The notes: generated from the sequence alone by a model not told the origin. Shown: positions 33,066 to 43,104, counted from the first letter of the stretch. The stretch: 43,104 nt of DNA from Escherichia coli (GCF_003334385.1 NZ_QOWN01000036.1), one strand, 5' to 3'. A program made the numbers and translations.

Positions 33066-34112
33066 ATGCCAGTTTTGCAGTGGGGAATGTTATGTGTGCT
33101 ATCACTTCTCCTTTCTATTGGTTTCCTCGCGGTACATCTCCCGGCGGCGCTATTACTTGGGCCGATGATCGCCGGGATCATCTTTAGTATGCGCGGAATT
33201 ACTCTGCAACTTCCCCGCTCTGCTTTTCTCGCCGCCCAGGCCATTCTTGGCTGCATGATTGCGCAAAACCTCACTGGTTCGATTCTCACCACCCTGGCCG
33301 TCAACTGGCCGATCGTGCTTGCAATTTTACTGGTAACGCTGCTTTCCAGCGCCATTGTGGGTTGGTTATTGGTGCGCTATAGCTCATTGCCTGGAAATAC
33401 CGGTGCCTGGGGCTCCTCTCCTGGCGGCGCGGCGGCAATGGTCGCTATGGCGCAAGATTACGGCGCAGATATTCGCCTGGTGGCGTTTATGCAATATCTG
33501 CGAGTGCTGTTCGTCGCGGGGGCCGCTGTTCTGGTCACCCGCATGATGCTGGGCGATAACGCTGAAGCGGTTAACCAGCATATCGTCTGGTTCCCGCCAG
33601 TGAGCATTAATCTCCTGCTTACTATTTTGCTCGCGGTCGTTGCCGGTACAGTGGGATGCCTGCTGCGTCTTCCTTCCGGCACGATGCTCATCCCGATGCT
33701 GGCGGGCGCAGTGCTCCAGTCTGGTCAGCTCATCACCATCGAACTACCGGAATGGCTGCTGGCGATGGCGTATATGGCAATTGGCTGGCGGATTGGTCTT
33801 GGTTTCGATAAACAAATCTTACTGCGGGCACTACGCCCGCTACCGCAAATCCTGCTGTCGATTTTTGCTCTGCTGGCTATTTGTGCGGGTATGGCGTGGG
33901 GGCTGACCCGGTTTATGCACATTGATTTTATGACTGCCTACCTCGCCACCAGCCCCGGCGGGCTTGATACCGTGGCGGTCATCGCCGCAGGGAGCAATGC
34001 CGATATGGCGCTCATTATGGCGATGCAAACCCTACGCCTGTTCAGTATTTTGCTGACAGGGCCTGCCATTGCGCGGTTTATTTCAACCTATGCGCCGAAG
34101 CGGTCGGCCTAG
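33066..34112 (+). CDS. abrB: Membrane protein AbrB (AbrB-duplication family, putative regulator of aidB)
   Basis: 348 aa from [20 protein letters not shown]; polytopic membrane protein; the track ORF adds 26 upstream codons. Confidence 0.88.
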
Positions 34113-34900
34113 TGCTGGCAGCCAGGGCACCAGTAAAACGGGCGAGATGACAGCGTGGTTTTCTCAATGATGCTGCCACAACGTTCGCACGGTTCGCCAT
34201 CTCGATGAAAAACCTTAAAGCGAAACAGCGCCCCATGATGCTTATTCTCATCCACCTGCCCCCGCGTAGCGTAGGAAAATCGAGGAATCTCCAGTAACGC
34301 GTGTGCGAGTGCATCCAGTTGCGCCGCATTGAGATCTTTCGCTTTATGATTTCCAGTCAACCCAACCTGCCAGAGGATCTCCACCCGCAAATAATTGCCA
34401 AGCCCAGCCAGAAACGCCTGATCGAGCAGTAATCCAGCAAACTGACGGTTACGAAAGCGCGGCGACAATAATCGTTCTTTCACCACCTCCGGCGTCAGAT
34501 TCGGATCCAGCACATCGGGACCAACGCGTTGTAAAAACGGATGCGTGGTCAGTTGTTCCGGGGTCAACATCTCAATATCCGAGGCGCTATAAAGCAGAAT
34601 GGTTTTGTCAGCCGTTTGCAGTTTTACCCGCAATACTCGCGTGGTCTGCGGCTCTTCGCCGGTATCAACCACGCGCCAGACGCCGTAAAGCTGATTATGG
34701 CTGTAGAGCGTTAAGTCGTTGGAAAAATGAGTTAACAACGCCTTACCACGCGTTTCCACATGGGTAACGTGTTGACCGATAAGTTGTGATTGATAAGGTT
34801 TTAACTGCGGGAAGGCAAACCAGACATCAGTTAGTGGTTTGCCTTTGATCGCCGCCTCCAGGTTATCCGCTGCACGGCGGATCTCCGGGCCTTCAGGCAT
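34109..34900 (-). CDS. nei: Endonuclease VIII (DNA glycosylase/AP lyase)
   Basis: 263-aa ORF with N-terminal MPEGPEIRR catalytic motif and C-terminal zinc finger ([25 protein letters not shown]). Confidence 0.95.
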
Positions 34901-34935
34901 GGTGATATCCTTTTTTCATTCTTTATTAATCGGGG

Positions 34936-35670
34936 TTATGCTGCGACAACAATCCCCTTTTCGGCAAATGCAGAGCGTAGTCGGCGGGCGAACGCCAGTG
35001 CGTGCTCGCCGTCGCCATGCAGGCAGACCGTTTGCGCCGCGACCGTTGCCCATTCGCCGGTGATACTTTTGACTCTGCCGTGTTGCACCATCTCCAGCGT
35101 TTGCGCCAGCGCCTGTTCTTCGTTTTCAATCAACGCGCCTGACTGGCTTCGCGGCACCAGCGAGCCGTCAGCCTGATAACCGCGATCGGCAAACACTTCC
35201 TCGCGCGTTGTCAGACCATATTGCTTGCCTGCACGAATCAGCTCGCTTCCCGCCAGCCCGACGAGAATCAATGCTGGATCGCAAGCGTATACCGCTCTGG
35301 CGATGGCGTCTGCCAGTTGTGCTTCTTTCGCCGCCTGGTTGTACAACATGCCGTGCGGTTTGACATGACGCATTACGCCGCCTTGCGCACGGGCAATCGT
35401 TGCCAGCGCGCCAATTTGATACAGCGTCTGGGCGTAAACGGTTTCTGGCGGCAGCTGCATGGCGCTGCGACCAAAATTTTCCCTGTCGGGAAAACTCGGG
35501 TGAGCGCCAATCGCGACACCATTTTTTATTGCTTCACGCACGCAAGCCTGCATGATTTGCGCATCGCCTGCATGAAATCCACAGGCAATATTGGCAGAGG
35601 AAACCAGCGTTAATAGCTCTGCGTCGCTGGCGCAGCCTTCGCCCAGATCGGCGTTCAGGTCAATTTTCAT
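34936..35670 (-). CDS. pxpA: 5-oxoprolinase subunit A (LamB/YcsF family; YbgL)
   Basis: 244-aa ORF ([20 protein letters not shown]...). Confidence 0.92.
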
Positions 35671-36592
35671 TGTGCAGCCGCCACGCTAATTGTTCAAAAT
35701 AACGTTGCTGATCTTGCCGTGCTTTTAGTGCCTCTTCCAGTGAACACTGGACAAAATGAATCGGCTGACCGAGCGGAATTTGCGCCAGATGGTACATATC
35801 AGCCTCAATGATACAGGCAATACGCGGGTAACCACCGGTGGTCTGTGCGTCGTTCATCAACACAATCGGCTGCCCGTTATGTGGCACCTGCACCACGCCC
35901 GGTAACAAACCGTGAGATAACAGTTCGCGATCGGTGGTGCGTTTTAAAATTTGCCCCTGTAAGCGATAGCCCATGCGGTTACTTTGCGAGCTAAGCTGCC
36001 AGGGCGAACGCCAGAATGCATCCTGCGAGGCGCGATCGAACTCATGATATTCCGGCCCCGGCAAGGCGCGAATGCGGTTGCCCCACAGCAGCTGTTTAAC
36101 GCCCTGCGCTTCCATAGAATCACGCTTCGATTTGCCAATCGGGAGTCGGTCACCATCCTTCAGTAAACGGCCTTCCAGCCCGCCAATCCCCACTTTGAGA
36201 TCGGTGCTGCATGAGCCCATTACCGGCGGAACATCAATACCACCCGCGACCGCCAGATAACTGCGCATCCCGTGCTGCGGGCGTTTAAGCGTTAAACGCT
36301 GGCCTGCTTTCATCGGCAATCGCCAGCCGGTCCAGACGGCATTATCATCCAGCCGCGCTTCGCAACCGGCACCCGTCAGAGCAAACCACCCATCAGTTTC
36401 GAACTCAACAGTTAACTGACCGAGCGTGATCTCCAGCGCGGGGGCATTGGCGTCATTACCCACCAGTAGGTTAGCAATGCGTAACGCGGGCATATCCAGT
36501 GCGCCGCAGTGGCTGATACCCGACTGGCGAAAACCGTGACGACCGCCATCCTGCACAGTGGTATACATGCCCGCACGAATAATCTTCAGCAT
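35660..36592 (-). CDS. pxpC: 5-oxoprolinase subunit C (YbgK)
   Basis: 310-aa ORF; 11-nt overlap with pxpA. Confidence 0.92.
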
Positions 36593-37242
36593 ACTCCCTC
36601 CTTCTGCGGTACAAAGCGCACGCTGTCTCCCGGACGTAATAAGATGGGTTCGTCACGCGCCGGATCAAACAGGCTGAGTGAGGTATGACCAATCAACTGC
36701 CAGCCACCCGGCGTTGCCAGCGGATAAACACCAGTCTGCGGCCCGCCGATCCCGACAGAACCTGCCGGAACGAGTAAGCGCGGTTCAGCGCGCCGTGGCG
36801 TGTGTAGTTGTTCCGGCAAACTCCCGAGATACGGGAAGCCCGGTTGAAAACCTAAAAACCAGACCACGTATTCCACGGAGGAGTGCAATTCAACAACCTG
36901 TTTTTCGCTCAACCCGCAATGCGCCGCGACCACCGCCAAATCCGGTCCGCCTGCACCACCGTAAACCACCGGAATTTCAATAAAGCGAGACTCCGGCTCC
37001 AGCGCCTCGCTCTCCTCCCACCAGCGTTGCAAACGCTCTATGGCATCCAGCGCCAGCGACTCAGGATTACGCAAAATCACCGTGATATTGTTCATGCCGG
37101 GAATGGCTTCAACCACATTCGGCATATCCACCAGACGCTGCGCCAGTCGCCAGATCCGTTTCTGGCTAGCCAGCGTCACCGGCGGTTCCAGTTCCAGCAC
37201 TACCGCCGTTTCACCTATCAGATAACAACGCGCTCGTTGCAC
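36586..37242 (-). CDS. pxpB: 5-oxoprolinase subunit B (YbgJ)
   Basis: 218-aa ORF; 7-nt overlap with pxpC. Confidence 0.92.
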
Positions 37243-37264
37243 TTTCGATCCCTCTGATTATTCG

Positions 37265-38008
37265 TTATGCAGGATTAGGAATATCAATAAAGGTCACATC
37301 AAGATCGGTATTTTCATTCAGCCACTCGCTCAATGCGCGAATACCACCACGTTCAGTGGCATGGTGACCTGCAGCATAAAAATGCAATCCCTGCTCGCGG
37401 GCTGAATGAATGGTCTGTTCAGAAACTTCGCCAGTAATAAAAGCATCCACGCCAAAACGCGCGGCGCTATCGATAAAACTTTGCCCGCCGCCCGTGCACC
37501 AGGCGACGCGCTGGACCACCTCAGGTCCGGTATCGCCACACCATAACGGCTTACGTCCCAGACGCGCTTCAATCCAGGAAGCCAGCTCCAGTCCCGGCAC
37601 AGGCATGGTCAGTTCGCCCCACGGCACCAACGGCTCAATTTCGCCCATGACCGTGATCCCCAGTAACGCCGCCAGCTGTGCGTTATTGCCCAGCTCAGGA
37701 TGTGCGTCAAGCGGCAAATGCCAGCCATACAGGTTGATATCATTCGCCAGCAACGTTTTTAAACGGTTACGCTTCATTCCGCGAATGACCGGAGACTCTC
37801 CTTTCCAGAAGTAGCCATGATGCACAATGACCGCATCCGCGCCCAGACGCACTGCCTCATCGAGCAAAGCCTGGCTGGCGGTGACACCGGTAACAATTTT
37901 TTGCACCGTCTCTTTGCCTTCCACCTGCAAACCATTCGGCGCGTAATCACTAATCGCCGCGCTGTTCAGTTTTTCGTTAATCAGTTGTTCCAGTTCGGTG
38001 TTTTTCAT
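37265..38008 (-). CDS. ybgI: Nif3-family metal-binding protein YbgI (GTP cyclohydrolase 1 type 2 homologue)
   Basis: 247-aa ORF recognised as YbgI; first gene of the ybgI-pxpBCA-nei cluster. Confidence 0.92.
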   Translation of the reverse strand: MKNTELEQLINEKLNSAAISDYAPNGLQVEGKETVQKIVTGVTASQALLDEAVRLGADAVIVHHGYFWKGESPVIRGMKRNRLKTLLANDINLYGWHLPLDAHPELGNNAQLAALLGITVMGEIEPLVPWGELTMPVPGLELASWIEARLGRKPLWCGDTGPEVVQRVAWCTGGGQSFIDSAARFGVDAFITGEVSEQTIHSAREQGLHFYAAGHHATERGGIRALSEWLNENTDLDVTFIDIPNPA

Positions 38009-38095
38009 CTTCGCGCCTTCCGTATTCTGATAGCTACACCGTTAACATAGCGTTACCTCGCCAGTTCGTCGATAGCCAATCTTTTGACATATTAA

Positions 38096-39760
<1,665 letters not shown>

Positions 39761-39775
39761 TAGGCCAGCACCGAT

Positions 39776-39905
39776 GCCTGATGCGACGCTTGACGCGTCT
39801 TATCAGGCCTACGTATTTCCTGCAATTTATTGAATTTGCACAAATTTGTAGGCTGGATAAGGCGTTCACGCCGCATCCGGCATCTGGGCTCGATTGCCTG
39901 ACGCG
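39776..39905. repeat. REP/BIME (RIP-like) element in the convergent dtpD-phr spacer
   Basis: gcctgatgcgacgcttgacgcgtcttatcaggcctac and tgtaggctggataaggcgttcacgccgcatccggcat palindromes flanking ctgcaatttattgaatttgc. Confidence 0.6.
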
Positions 39906-39909
39906 TCTG

Positions 39910-41328
39910 TTATTTCCCCTTCCGCGCCGCCTCATACGCTGCCAACGTTTGTACTCTCGCTTCTTTGTGCTCGACTATCGGTTGCGGATAATCCAGCGTC
40001 ACACCTGCTTTCTGCGCCCACTTCCACGGCTCATGCACCACTTTCCCTGGCACATCGCGCAGTTCCGGTAGCCACTGGCGGATAAACTCGCCCTCATGAT
40101 CAAATTTCTCGCCCTGGGTTGTCGGGTTGAAAATACGAAAATACGGCGCTGCATCGGTTCCGGTTGAAGCGGCCCACTGCCAGCCACCGTTATTGGCTGC
40201 CAAATCACCATCAATCAGCTGCGACATGAAATATCGCTCGCCTTCGCGCCAGTCGATCAATAAATCTTTCACCAGAAAACTGGCTGTAATCATCCGTAGC
40301 CTGTTATGCATCCAGCCAGTGCTGTTAAGCTGACGCATAGCGGCATCAACAATCGGGTATCCCGTTTTGCCTTCCTGCCAGGCCTGTAAATGTGCGGGAT
40401 TGCTCTGCCACTGTACACGATCCGTCCAGGCAATAAATGGACGATGTTTACACAACGAGGGGTGATACGTTATCAGGTGACGGTAAAACTCGCGCCAGAT
40501 CAGCTCATTAAGCCAGACACTACCGGCCCCACCGTCCAGCGCCTGCGGCTGTTCAGCCAACAAGCGATGCAAGCACTGGCGAGGCGATAACCCGCCCGTT
40601 GCCAGGCTGGCCGACAAACGGCTGGTGCCTTCCACTGCCGGAAAATCTCGTTGTTGCTCATATTCTCCGGCACCGTTCTGGCAAAACTGGCGTAATTGCG
40701 CAATCGCCGCTTTTTCTTCCACCGGAAAATGCGCAGTATCGAAAGACTGACGAGGATAATTCAGCGTAATGGATGGCGAGGGCTCTATCGATCCGCTACT
40801 ACGAACTTTTGGCGCAGCGACGCACTCCGGCATCCCTTCCCGCAGCCGTTTCAGCCAGGCATTCTTAAAAGGCGTAAAGACTTTGTACATCTCGTGATTA
40901 CCGGTCATCACCGCGCCAGGCGGCAGGATCACGCTGTCATCAAATCCTTCACACACCACGTTACGCAGCGCTCTTTCAACTTCCACATCCCGCGCCCGCT
41001 CATTCACTTCATACTGATAGTTATAAAACAGGTGGGTAACGCTGTTTTCCGCGCACACCTGTTTAACTATTTCGACACTGGCGACAAAGTCATCCACTTC
41101 ACGGAACAATAAAGGAATACCTTTTTCCGCAAGCGCTATTTGTAGCCCATTCAGTTGAGCATTGATAAGTTCAGCCTGACGCGGCGACATGTTATGCGTC
41201 GCCCACTGGCGTGGTGTAGCGATATACAACGCCAGCACGCGTGCAGACGAATTGCGGCAGGCGGCAGCCAGTGCGAGATTATCGTGCAGACGTAAATCCT
41301 GGCGAAACCAGACCAGATGGGTAGTCAT
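39910..41328 (-). CDS. phr: Deoxyribodipyrimidine photolyase (CPD photolyase)
   Basis: 472-aa ORF (MTTHLVWFRQDLRLHDNLALAAA...) with photolyase/cryptochrome FAD-binding domain. Confidence 0.95.
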   Translation of the reverse strand: MTTHLVWFRQDLRLHDNLALAAACRNSSARVLALYIATPRQWATHNMSPRQAELINAQLNGLQIALAEKGIPLLFREVDDFVASVEIVKQVCAENSVTHLFYNYQYEVNERARDVEVERALRNVVCEGFDDSVILPPGAVMTGNHEMYKVFTPFKNAWLKRLREGMPECVAAPKVRSSGSIEPSPSITLNYPRQSFDTAHFPVEEKAAIAQLRQFCQNGAGEYEQQRDFPAVEGTSRLSASLATGGLSPRQCLHRLLAEQPQALDGGAGSVWLNELIWREFYRHLITYHPSLCKHRPFIAWTDRVQWQSNPAHLQAWQEGKTGYPIVDAAMRQLNSTGWMHNRLRMITASFLVKDLLIDWREGERYFMSQLIDGDLAANNGGWQWAASTGTDAAPYFRIFNPTTQGEKFDHEGEFIRQWLPELRDVPGKVVHEPWKWAQKAGVTLDYPQPIVEHKEARVQTLAAYEAARKGK

Positions 41329-41834
41329 AAAACTCCTGAATGGCGCAAGTTAATCACACGCGGCCAAAGTTCGAAATAACGCTGCCCTGAAAGCCAGGCG
41401 TCAGGATAAAGCGCCATATAGTGTTTGATACGCATCAGCGGCGCAAGAAGTGGTTGCTCGCCACGGCGATAACTGTCGATAAGCGCAGCCAGCTGCTGGC
41501 GTTCTGTGGAATCAATATGCGGGCGAAAATAACCCTGAACGTGCATCAAAACATTGGTGTGATCGCGCGGGTTGGCGGGGTGAGAAAGCAAAACAACTAC
41601 GCGTTGGCGGTACTGGTTGTAATAGTCATCCAGATTTTGCCACTGGTGAATATCAGCCACGAACGGGCCAAGTTTGCGGTACTCCGGCTGAGAATGCGCC
41701 AGAAAGACGAGTTTATAGCGGCTGTGATAATCGAGAAGCGCCCCGCGCGTTAAGCCATGTTCTTTCAGTCGATGTAACTCATGAAGGGCAAAGATACGGA
41801 TTAGGGTGCTGTCATCAAATCGTTGTAGATTCAT
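41325..41834 (-). CDS. ybgA: DUF1722-family protein YbgA, co-transcribed with phr
   Basis: 169-aa ORF whose stop overlaps the phr start (ATGA). Confidence 0.9.
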   Translation of the reverse strand: MNLQRFDDSTLIRIFALHELHRLKEHGLTRGALLDYHSRYKLVFLAHSQPEYRKLGPFVADIHQWQNLDDYYNQYRQRVVVLLSHPANPRDHTNVLMHVQGYFRPHIDSTERQQLAALIDSYRRGEQPLLAPLMRIKHYMALYPDAWLSGQRYFELWPRVINLRHSGVL

Positions 41835-41981: not shown

Positions 41982-42743
41982 CTATTCAAACGTGAAATCA
42001 ATAAGCTCATCAGGGACATCGCAAACAATATGAAGACGGGTTTCTTCTCTGCCGTGACTCTTTTCACTAATTGCGTAACTGTCATGCTTGGGATTATTTA
42101 ATTCTTTCAGCGGAAATTTTTCCTCGAAGGCTTTATTTAGCCGCCCCTGGTTTCCTTTTACAGCGAATAAATAATCACCTCCCTGTTTTTGTATCTTCTC
42201 TGCAATATCTTTCTGGCAACCCATCGCATCAGTTGTGATGATTTTTCCTTTAATATCCAGCATGTTAAGAAGTTCAGGGATAGCTGTGATCTCATTGGAT
42301 TTCTTATCCGTCTTGATCTGTCCGATGACCAGACTGTGCATTGTTGAGAACGCACTAATGACATGAATCGCTCCCTTACGGCGACTCTTGTCATAAGAAT
42401 GCCGGTGTATTTTTCCATCAATTGCGATGACGTCTTTATCATCTGAAGAATGGTAGTCAAGCATCCAGTTAATAAAGCTCTCATGAAATTTCGCAGGACA
42501 GATACAGGATACAACTCTGGCAATGGTATCGTGAACAGGAATACCATTTTCAAAATCACCATATTGCTTCAAAAAATCGGGATGTGTTTCCCCAAAATCC
42601 TCTATATCTTCCCAGCCTTCTGCACCAGAAATAACGGCACAAATAGTCAACAGTAGAATATCCGATAATTTATGTTCCACTTTCCAGGCTTGTCTGTAAT
42701 CGGGGATAATAGAAATATGTTCCATCAATTTTTTAAGTTCCAT
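41982..42743 (-). CDS. ybfD: H repeat-associated protein YbfD (ISAs1-family transposase, C-terminally truncated)
   Basis: 253-aa ORF with DDE-transposase-like sequence, ending abruptly at DFTFE* where full-length H-repeat proteins continue. Confidence 0.88.
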
Positions 42744-42873
42744 TTTGTTCTCCTTAATTATGTAAGAAGTATTTGATCATGTATAAGCAATAAAAAACAG
42801 CTTCAGGTAATAAGGAATATCTCAATTTTTAAACATAAAATGCGAATTATTTAGTACAAAAAGCAGGGAAAGA

Positions 42874-43104
42874 TTACGAAAGCCCGCTCCCCGCAAGGAC
42901 TGACGCGAGATAGTTTCTATCCATGGCTGCTTTTCGCATCTTACGTCTTAACCCTGCCTTGAATACCTTATCATTCGTTAAAATATTAATAGCGATGTGC
43001 CGTATCCCTGAAAATAATTCTGCGGCGTTTCCTCTTCTTATTTTGCAGTCGTCTTCATTCATTACCACGTCCAGACGCCAGTGCAGCTTATTCTCCACGT
43101 GCCA
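42874..43104 (-). CDS. ybfL: H repeat-associated protein (ISAs1-family transposase), 3' portion; continues beyond window
   Basis: 74 aa visible (…[35 protein letters not shown]…[16 protein letters not shown]), matching the conserved C-terminus of ISAs1/H-repeat transposases; the ORF is open at the window edge. Confidence 0.8.

Follow-up and report, generated by a model that had tools for sequence, protein, structure and literature searches.

We analysed a locus in a stretch of Escherichia coli DNA of 43,104 nucleotides (nt) (GCF_003334385.1, NZ_QOWN01000036.1; hereafter the window), where the five genes ybgI, pxpB, pxpC, pxpA and nei follow one another without interruption, all on the minus strand. 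Gene and junction coordinates were obtained from a listing of open reading frames (ORFs), a reverse-strand reading of positions 34050-38320 and a junction script, and the operon comprises the following genes, from first to last:

37265-38008, minus strand: ybgI, ATG to TAA, 247 amino acids (aa), dinuclear-metal protein of the Nif3/DUF34 family; first gene of the operon
36586-37242, minus strand: pxpB (ybgJ), GTG to TGA, 218 aa, 5-oxoprolinase subunit B
35660-36592, minus strand: pxpC (ybgK), ATG to TGA, 310 aa, 5-oxoprolinase subunit C
34936-35670, minus strand: pxpA (ybgL), ATG to TAA, 244 aa, 5-oxoprolinase subunit A of the LamB/YcsF family
34109-34900, minus strand: nei, ATG to TAG, 263 aa, endonuclease VIII, a DNA glycosylase/AP lyase of the Fpg/Nei type; last gene of the operon

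A first-pass annotation had described positions 34936-38008 as a tightly overlapped ybgI-pxpB-pxpC-pxpA cluster followed by nei. Its gene calls, strand, order and coordinates agreed exactly with the ORF list, the sequence reading and the junction script, and the overlaps of 7 nt (pxpB/pxpC) and 11 nt (pxpC/pxpA) that it gave were likewise exact. The wording "tightly overlapped" is apt for pxpB-pxpC-pxpA but not for ybgI and pxpB, which are separated by a spacer of 22 nt, and nei does follow on the same strand but lies just outside that interval, beyond a spacer of 35 nt.

A megablast search of complete E. coli genomes with positions 34000-38300 gave matches of 100% identity to K-12 MG1655 and to several further strains, and at least 80% of this region was found in 5423 of the 5426 genomes searched. 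The whole window departs from the K-12 record used for comparison by 11 mismatches and one single-base gap, all outside the operon; one example is an A/G mismatch at about position 1518, in pal. RefSeq names the products in the identical K-12 record radiation resistance protein YbgI, 5-oxoprolinase subunits PxpB, PxpC and PxpA, and endonuclease VIII, and all five proteins scored above the curated cut-offs of NCBIfam equivalog models. Solved structures are available for exactly these sequences of YbgI (PDB 1NMO/1NMP), PxpB with PxpC (5DUD) and PxpA (1XW8). Locus, genes, order and annotation are the same as in the E. coli K-12 operon ybgI-ybgJ-ybgK-ybgL-nei, from which we noted no difference. 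The arrangement ybgI-pxpB-pxpC-pxpA-nei (older name ybgIJKL-nei) is an already described operon of E. coli K-12: nei is presented as the terminal gene of an operon in the title of Gifford & Wallace (2000, Nucleic Acids Res 28:762), and "nei,ybgI,ybgJ,ybgK,ybgL" are grouped as one unit in an operon table that a paper of 2015 reproduces (PMC4448311).

The sequence is consistent with transcription as a single unit. The five genes are co-directional, the intergene distances from ybgI to nei are short (22, -7, -11 and 35 nt), and neither an internal promoter-like site nor a strong terminator-like site was found between the first gene and the last. Within the cluster, scans for sigma-70-like hexamers, strict as well as relaxed, gave nothing promoter-like on the coding strand, and the relaxed scan had no candidate ahead of nei. 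Terminator-like hairpins inside the cluster genes were weak (5-7 bp), and their total of 11 was not clearly above the mean of 5.6 (standard deviation 2.8) in shuffled sequence. Two intergenic regions bear on the ends of this unit:

38009-38278: divergent intergenic region between ybgI and dtpD, 270 nt, presumed promoter region of the operon
34901-34935, minus strand: pxpA-nei spacer, 35 nt, with an AAGGA Shine-Dalgarno sequence and no promoter-like or terminator-like site seen

The strict scan found no promoter for ybgI on its strand; the best sigma-70-like candidate of the relaxed scan was TCGACG-17-TATGTT at 38072-38044, about 35 nt before the ybgI start, with 8 of 12 matches. Upstream of this candidate promoter there is a weak terminator-like hairpin of 5 bp on the minus strand (38108-38121, GCGTCTTTTGGCGT followed by a T-rich tail). 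At the other end, the stop codons of nei and the convergent gene abrB overlap in a shared palindromic CTAG (34109-34112; abrB ends at 34112), and no terminator-like site was found after nei on the nei strand because nei ends inside abrB. No RNA element was detected within the operon or in the ybgI leader at the Rfam gathering threshold, and a repeat search returned just short two-copy matches, as expected by chance. A single message would probably start in the ybgI/dtpD intergenic region and end after nei.

The three central genes were assigned with confidence to their families. PxpB matched the TIGR00370 equivalog model over its full length (355.6 bits against a cut-off of 145.55, profile positions 1-202 of 202) and chain B of PDB 5DUD, "YbgJ", over residues 1-218. 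PxpC scored 591.8 bits against NF045499 (equivalog, cut-off 500) and matched chain A of the same entry, "YbgK", over residues 1-310, while PxpA scored 511.8 bits against NF003812 (equivalog, cut-off 378) and matched PDB 1XW8, "UPF0271 protein ybgL", over residues 1-244. PxpA, PxpB and PxpC are the three subunits of the prokaryotic ATP-dependent 5-oxoprolinase, whose activity is here predicted from these matches. The enzyme was discovered by Niehaus et al. (2017, J Biol Chem 292:16360, as summarised in PMC13274462), and a division of labour has been proposed in which PxpB and PxpC phosphorylate 5-oxoproline with ATP and PxpA decyclises and dephosphorylates the product to glutamate (PMC13274462). 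The PxpABC systems of Bacillus subtilis (ycsF-kipI-kipA) and Corynebacterium glutamicum (pxpTABC) consist of the same three subunit families encoded by adjacent, co-directional genes. Unlike these, which have the order A-B-C, the E. coli window has the order B-C-A, and its pxp genes share their operon with two genes unrelated to them; moreover C. glutamicum has pxpT and pxpR by its cluster, whereas the E. coli cluster is without a dedicated transporter or regulator gene. The description of the Corynebacterium pxpTABC operon names neither ybgI nor nei (PMC13274462).

Nei scored 504.8 bits against its equivalog model NF007763 (cut-off 252) and carries both an N-terminus MPEGPEI with the catalytic Pro2 and Glu3 and a C-terminal CERCG...CPGC zinc-finger motif. 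It shares these motifs and the equivalog match with endonuclease VIII of the Fpg/Nei family, and no difference was noted. Gifford and Wallace are said to have seen no induction of nei by DNA-damaging agents. For E. coli BE2-5 (NZ_CP032986.1) and FG31-1 (NZ_CP142680.1) the match to the region is broken into two pieces that span 5060 rather than 4301 bases, and the annotation contains nei two times, which suggests an insertion of about 760 bp splitting nei in these two strains.

YbgI was searched against 1.84 billion cluster representatives, and the diverse homologues obtained were used for a 32-sequence alignment, with which one scan of GTDB species genomes was made. The resulting survey comprised 80 species loci with flanks of 7 kb, chosen as best matches to E. 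coli YbgI in tblastn (numbered loci below carry the prefix L). Among them were 34 named Enterobacterales and 46 others, namely Pasteurellaceae, Orbaceae, Vibrionaceae, Aeromonas, Alteromonadales, Pseudomonadales and unclassified metagenome-assembled genomes (MAGs). Loci were analysed by tblastn with E. coli proteins, ORF-based measurement of junctions and clustering of ORFs.

YbgI itself is a full-length member of its family (TIGR00486, 276.9 bits against a cut-off of 130.55; NCBIfam NF008064, 531.6 bits), with PF01784 precomputed on close homologues, and it matched PDB 1NMO/1NMP, "Hypothetical protein ybgI", over residues 1-247 (E 9.9e-169). The radiation phenotype behind its RefSeq name reportedly came from a deletion-library screen by Sargentini and colleagues in 2016. 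Proteins of the Nif3/DUF34 family bind a dinuclear metal centre through five His, one Asp and one Glu, and YbgI forms a toroidal hexamer with the metal sites directed towards a central channel (PMC8469502). Our check on YbgI followed four of the five His: in the 32 sequences, which reach down to 35% identity, H64, D101, H215 and E219 were invariant, and conservation at H63 and H97 was at least 90%. E. coli YbgI has therefore kept the metal ligands conserved in the family that also includes YqfO of B. subtilis and B. cereus and human NIF3L1. The name "GTP cyclohydrolase I type 2" attached to NF008064 should not be taken as the function of YbgI, because E. coli ybgI supplied in trans does not complement folE (PMC8469502), and we rejected it. 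A single 425-aa database entry (P0002) joins E. coli YbgI to PxpB and was likewise rejected as evidence of a functional link: the fusion arises from a deletion that keeps the reading frame in a sequence identical to E. coli elsewhere, and it includes an internal deletion of PxpB; its probable origin is a deletion mutant or an assembly artefact. Two literature hits were discarded, PMC8464067, in which "ybgI" is a typing error for ygbI, and PMC10573277, the main text of which does not contain the term.

The junctions between the pxp genes and the signals for ribosome binding around them are as follows:

37243-37264, minus strand: ybgI-pxpB spacer, 22 nt, with a GAGGGA Shine-Dalgarno sequence before the pxpB GTG; duplex with the anti-Shine-Dalgarno sequence -6.3 kcal/mol
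36596-36603, minus strand: Shine-Dalgarno sequence of pxpC, AAGGAGGG, within the last pxpB codons; duplex with the anti-Shine-Dalgarno sequence -12.2 kcal/mol
36586-36592, minus strand: pxpB/pxpC overlap, 7 nt, ATGCTGA, containing the pxpC start ATG and the end of pxpB (...TGC TGA stop)
35660-35670, minus strand: pxpC/pxpA overlap, 11 nt, ATGAAAATTGA

The pxpC signal is very strong, given that 1.6% of background 22-nt windows reached -9 kcal/mol or lower. That of pxpA is weak (GGCGG, -4.8 kcal/mol, against a background mean of -2.8 with a standard deviation of 2.5).

Both overlaps recurred among the Enterobacterales. The 7-nt overlap was found in 29 of the 30 loci with both pxpB and pxpC, the exception being Yersinia aldovae (L026), where the match to pxpB was partial. 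The heptamer at the 30 junctions was ATGCTGA in 21 cases, ATGTTAA in five, ATGTTGA in two, and ATGCTAA and GTGCTAA in one each, and the AAGGAGGG motif was retained across all of them with small changes at most. The genes pxpC and pxpA overlapped in 23 of 24 loci, by 11 nt in 15, by 14 nt in three, by 4 nt in two and by 17, 8 and 1 nt once each; the remaining locus had a gap of 37 nt. The distance between ybgI and pxpB varied more widely, with spacers of 11-29 nt in Enterobacteriaceae (L003-L016 and L051), 103-156 nt in Erwiniaceae, Pectobacteriaceae and Acerihabitans, and 0.4-4.2 kb in Yersinia, Rahnella and Hafnia.

The overlaps would most probably serve translational coupling for matched synthesis of the subunits, because the overlaps are conserved, the ribosome-binding sites of pxpC and pxpA differ so clearly in strength, PxpB and PxpC occur together in a YbgJ-YbgK complex (PDB 5DUD), and Thermus TTHA0988 (PDB 3OEP, 494 aa) is a natural fusion with PxpB at residues 17-199 and PxpC at residues 227-492. 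The 7- and 11-nt overlaps of start and stop codons would then couple translation of pxpB, pxpC and pxpA and lead to matched subunit amounts. Since its own ribosome-binding site is weak in E. coli, pxpA would probably depend most on ribosomes terminating on pxpC. Coupling had been proposed in the first-pass annotation from the overlaps, and with their retention in about 30 species, the embedded AAGGAGGG, the complex and the Thermus fusion it appears a reasonable inference.

Alternatively, the overlaps might be incidental to compact packing, with each pxp gene translated independently from its own ribosome-binding site. Such an explanation would suit the very strong site of pxpC and the range of the pxpC/pxpA junction among species, from -17 to +37 nt. 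Short same-strand overlaps are also common: seven others, of 1-7 nt, occur in the window (tolQ/ybgC, 4 nt; ybgE/cydX, 1 nt; sucC/sucD, 1 nt; sdhD/sdhA, 1 nt; sdhC/sdhD, 7 nt; ybgP/ybgO, 4 nt; ybgA/phrB, 4 nt), and the pxp overlaps are in this respect not unusual. However, the 7-nt overlap persisted in 29 of 30 species despite identities to the E. coli proteins of just 54-91% for PxpB and 52-95% for PxpC, the weak ribosome-binding site of E. coli pxpA speaks against independent translation, and the PxpB-PxpC complex and the Thermus fusion favour matched synthesis. We therefore consider translation without coupling unlikely.

The survey further showed where ybgI, the pxp genes and nei keep company. 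In 30 of the 34 Enterobacterales loci ybgI was followed by pxpB-pxpC on the same strand; the others were two Photorhabdus loci, Providencia and Klebsiella sp. BIGb0407. Neither pxp genes nor nei were found within 7 kb of ybgI in any of the 46 loci outside Enterobacterales, nor in the three Morganellaceae loci. In Klebsiella sp. BIGb0407 (L017:5578-8623) the order was phrB-ybgI-nei with no pxp genes, phrB and ybgI overlapping by 11 nt and nei starting about 90 nt past ybgI. Composition also varied at the downstream end of the cluster. In Yersinia, Rosenbergiella and Erwinia endophytica nei was not part of the cluster, though the next backbone gene, gltA, was reached. Five loci (L007, L013, L016, L033 and L035) had pxpB-pxpC without pxpA, and in three of them nei lay 9-20 nt after pxpC; a relaxed tblastn search of these loci found no divergent pxpA there.

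Seventeen loci carried pcp, with or without genes for DUF969 and DUF979 proteins, between pxpA and nei or, where nei was absent, after pxpA (positions are listed for L003:10123-12491 and its equivalents in L008, L009, L018-L024, L026, L027, L029-L031 and L051). The gene pcp encodes pyroglutamyl-peptidase I (NF009676, 330 bits) and is usually preceded by those for the membrane proteins DUF969 and DUF979, which have been proposed as a 5-oxoproline transporter with preliminary mutant support in Campylobacter. All three genes are absent at the locus in E. coli and E. albertii. Because pcp and DUF969/DUF979 occupy the position between pxpA and nei in other Enterobacterales, the block that lies between ybgI and nei would be a complete 5-oxoproline salvage module, trimmed in E. 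coli to the enzyme genes.

Upstream of ybgI, the photolyase gene phrB, itself preceded by ybgA, was the direct neighbour on the same strand at distances of -11 to +108 nt in 18 Enterobacterales loci (adjacency is listed for L009-L024, L029, L033 and L035; the corresponding part of the window is 38279-41834). In 16 loci the phrB end and the ybgI start were -11 to +35 nt apart, with overlaps of 8 or 11 nt in Pectobacterium, Brenneria and Klebsiella sp. BIGb0407. An opposite-strand dtpD between phrB and ybgI was present in only seven loci, those of E. coli and six related species of the Escherichia/Citrobacter/Kluyvera group, and in Yersinia, Rahnella and Hafnia a gene for a class-II cAMP phosphodiesterase separates the two. 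In two Alteromonadales ybgA-phrB was found about 0.6 kb from ybgI with an opposite-strand gene between. Vibrionaceae showed the order ybfF-seqA-pgm-(DUF1853)-ybgI-gltA-sdhCDAB.

Two further genes were recurrently seen next to ybgI. A divergent gene for a DUF1853 protein of about 266 aa stands between pgm and ybgI, immediately ahead of the latter, in Vibrionaceae (L040, L042, L045, L047, L048, L053, L055, L057, L058, L063 and L064) and in a gammaproteobacterial MAG (L039); most of these Vibrionaceae loci have a convergent gltA after ybgI, with sdhCDAB next. A divergent gene for a protein of about 146 aa was found about 90-150 nt upstream of ybgI in L046 (6472-6912) and 13 other Alteromonadales loci, where cmoM or elyC comes after ybgI. 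Searches of NCBIfam and Pfam gave no informative function for either protein, and the 146-aa protein was without any match.

Taken together, we think it very probable that the locus is the known five-gene operon, that its pxp genes are coupled, and that ybgI and nei were linked to them by lineage-specific accretion. Stepwise insertion into one chromosomal interval would most simply account for the company of ybgI, the pxp genes and nei, because this company is confined to one order and variable within it. The gene ybgI would be an old resident of the interval between pgm and gltA, since Vibrionaceae keep pgm-(DUF1853)-ybgI-gltA. In an ancestor of most Enterobacterales, ybgA-phrB would have been placed directly upstream of ybgI, and pxpBCA with the putative DUF969/DUF979 transporter and pcp, and then nei, downstream of it. 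The Escherichia lineage may later have lost DUF969-DUF979-pcp, which would have brought pxpA next to nei, and gained dtpD between phrB and ybgI. Neither YbgI nor Nei is part of the 5-oxoprolinase, and their presence in the same operon would reflect the accretion of genes in one lineage. The first-pass annotation had implied that the link between ybgI, 5-oxoprolinase and nei is an open puzzle with a hidden logic, which does not fit with an operon that was already in the literature and a linkage that is lineage-specific. The co-occurrence across genomes by which it proposed to examine the link largely fails outside Enterobacterales, and the radiation phenotyping of ybgI that it suggested appears, judging by the RefSeq name, to have been done already.

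Several points weigh against this account. The order ybgI-pxp-nei is kept across at least four families of Enterobacterales, and some selected co-regulation of the three parts is possible because the order is kept, the DNA-repair genes phrB and nei bracket ybgI, and RefSeq names YbgI for radiation resistance. The order of events, insertion as opposed to loss, was inferred by parsimony without a tree, and the 80 loci all belong to Gammaproteobacteria because they were selected as best tblastn matches to E. coli YbgI. At the level of expression, the predicted promoter of ybgI is weak, with its 8 of 12 matches, and the strong ribosome-binding site of pxpC could allow independent initiation. Finally, co-transcription and enzyme mechanism are taken from the literature, as represented by a title and secondary summaries.

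A functional reading of the neighbourhood would make YbgI a DNA-damage-tolerance factor whose original partners were photolyase and endonuclease VIII. It is suggested by the order ybgA-phrB-ybgI-...-nei in most Enterobacterales, where the phrB stop and the ybgI start are close or overlapping, and we regard it as improbable. Another idea is that of a stress unit in which YbgI, 5-oxoprolinase and endonuclease VIII, ancestrally together with photolyase, are co-expressed against oxidative or radiation damage and YbgI acts directly in DNA-damage tolerance. Here the RefSeq name of YbgI would fit, as would the tight and partly overlapping phrB-ybgI junctions of 16 Enterobacterales loci, the phrB-ybgI-nei arrangement lacking pxp in Klebsiella sp. 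BIGb0407, the proximity of ybgA-phrB to ybgI in two Alteromonadales, and the naming of MutY, SplB and PhrB among the proteins of representative DUF34 operons (PMC8469502). Against this, nei and pxp were absent within 7 kb of ybgI from all 46 loci outside Enterobacterales, and phrB was near ybgI in just two of them, each time with the opposite-strand gene between. The missing nei of the Yersinia, Rosenbergiella and Erwinia endophytica clusters also speaks against such a unit, and to our knowledge 5-oxoproline metabolism has no role in DNA repair. We therefore hold a common stress function to be distinctly improbable. It is highly improbable that YbgI serves as metal chaperone or insertase for its operon neighbours, for instance delivering zinc to the Nei finger or metal to PxpA: the proposal of such a role for DUF34 and the enrichment of metal-dependent proteins in DUF34 operons (PMC8469502), the conserved His, Asp and Glu ligands of YbgI and the CxxC...CxxC zinc-finger motif of Nei would agree with it, but YbgI can hardly be dedicated to these clients because ybgI is widespread in Gammaproteobacteria with neither nei nor pxp nearby, descriptions of the pxp operons in Corynebacterium and Bacillus mention no ybgI neighbour (PMC13274462), and we found no interaction or dependency data for YbgI with Nei or PxpABC.

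Beyond the operon, the window contains an Rfam match to the small RNA ES036 (CssrF) in the dtpD-phrB intergenic region (39805-39847, minus strand; 75.1 bits against a gathering score of 37.6). Pseudogenes of ISAs1-family transposases, ybfD and a neighbour with an internal stop, adjoin ybgA at 41985-43104 on the minus strand, at the edge of the E. coli expansion of the pgm-ybgI interval.

Earlier records already cover the operon, its enzyme, the protein structures and the radiation-related name of ybgI. What the survey of 80 species adds is modest: conservation of the 7-nt overlap, loss of the transporter genes and pcp, an adjacency of phrB and ybgI that dtpD masks in E. coli, and an ancestral backbone of pgm, ybgI and gltA. 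The odd functional mix of the operon does not signal a hidden pathway, and pxpBCA is a self-contained module whose parts are probably coupled in translation. A lead worth keeping is that ybgI lies directly behind the photolyase gene in most Enterobacterales, an arrangement masked in E. coli by the insertion of dtpD, and this lead bears on the still uncharacterised Nif3 family. If the damage-tolerance reading of YbgI were true, the Nif3 family would, in bacteria at least, take a direct part in repairing DNA lesions caused by UV or oxidation.

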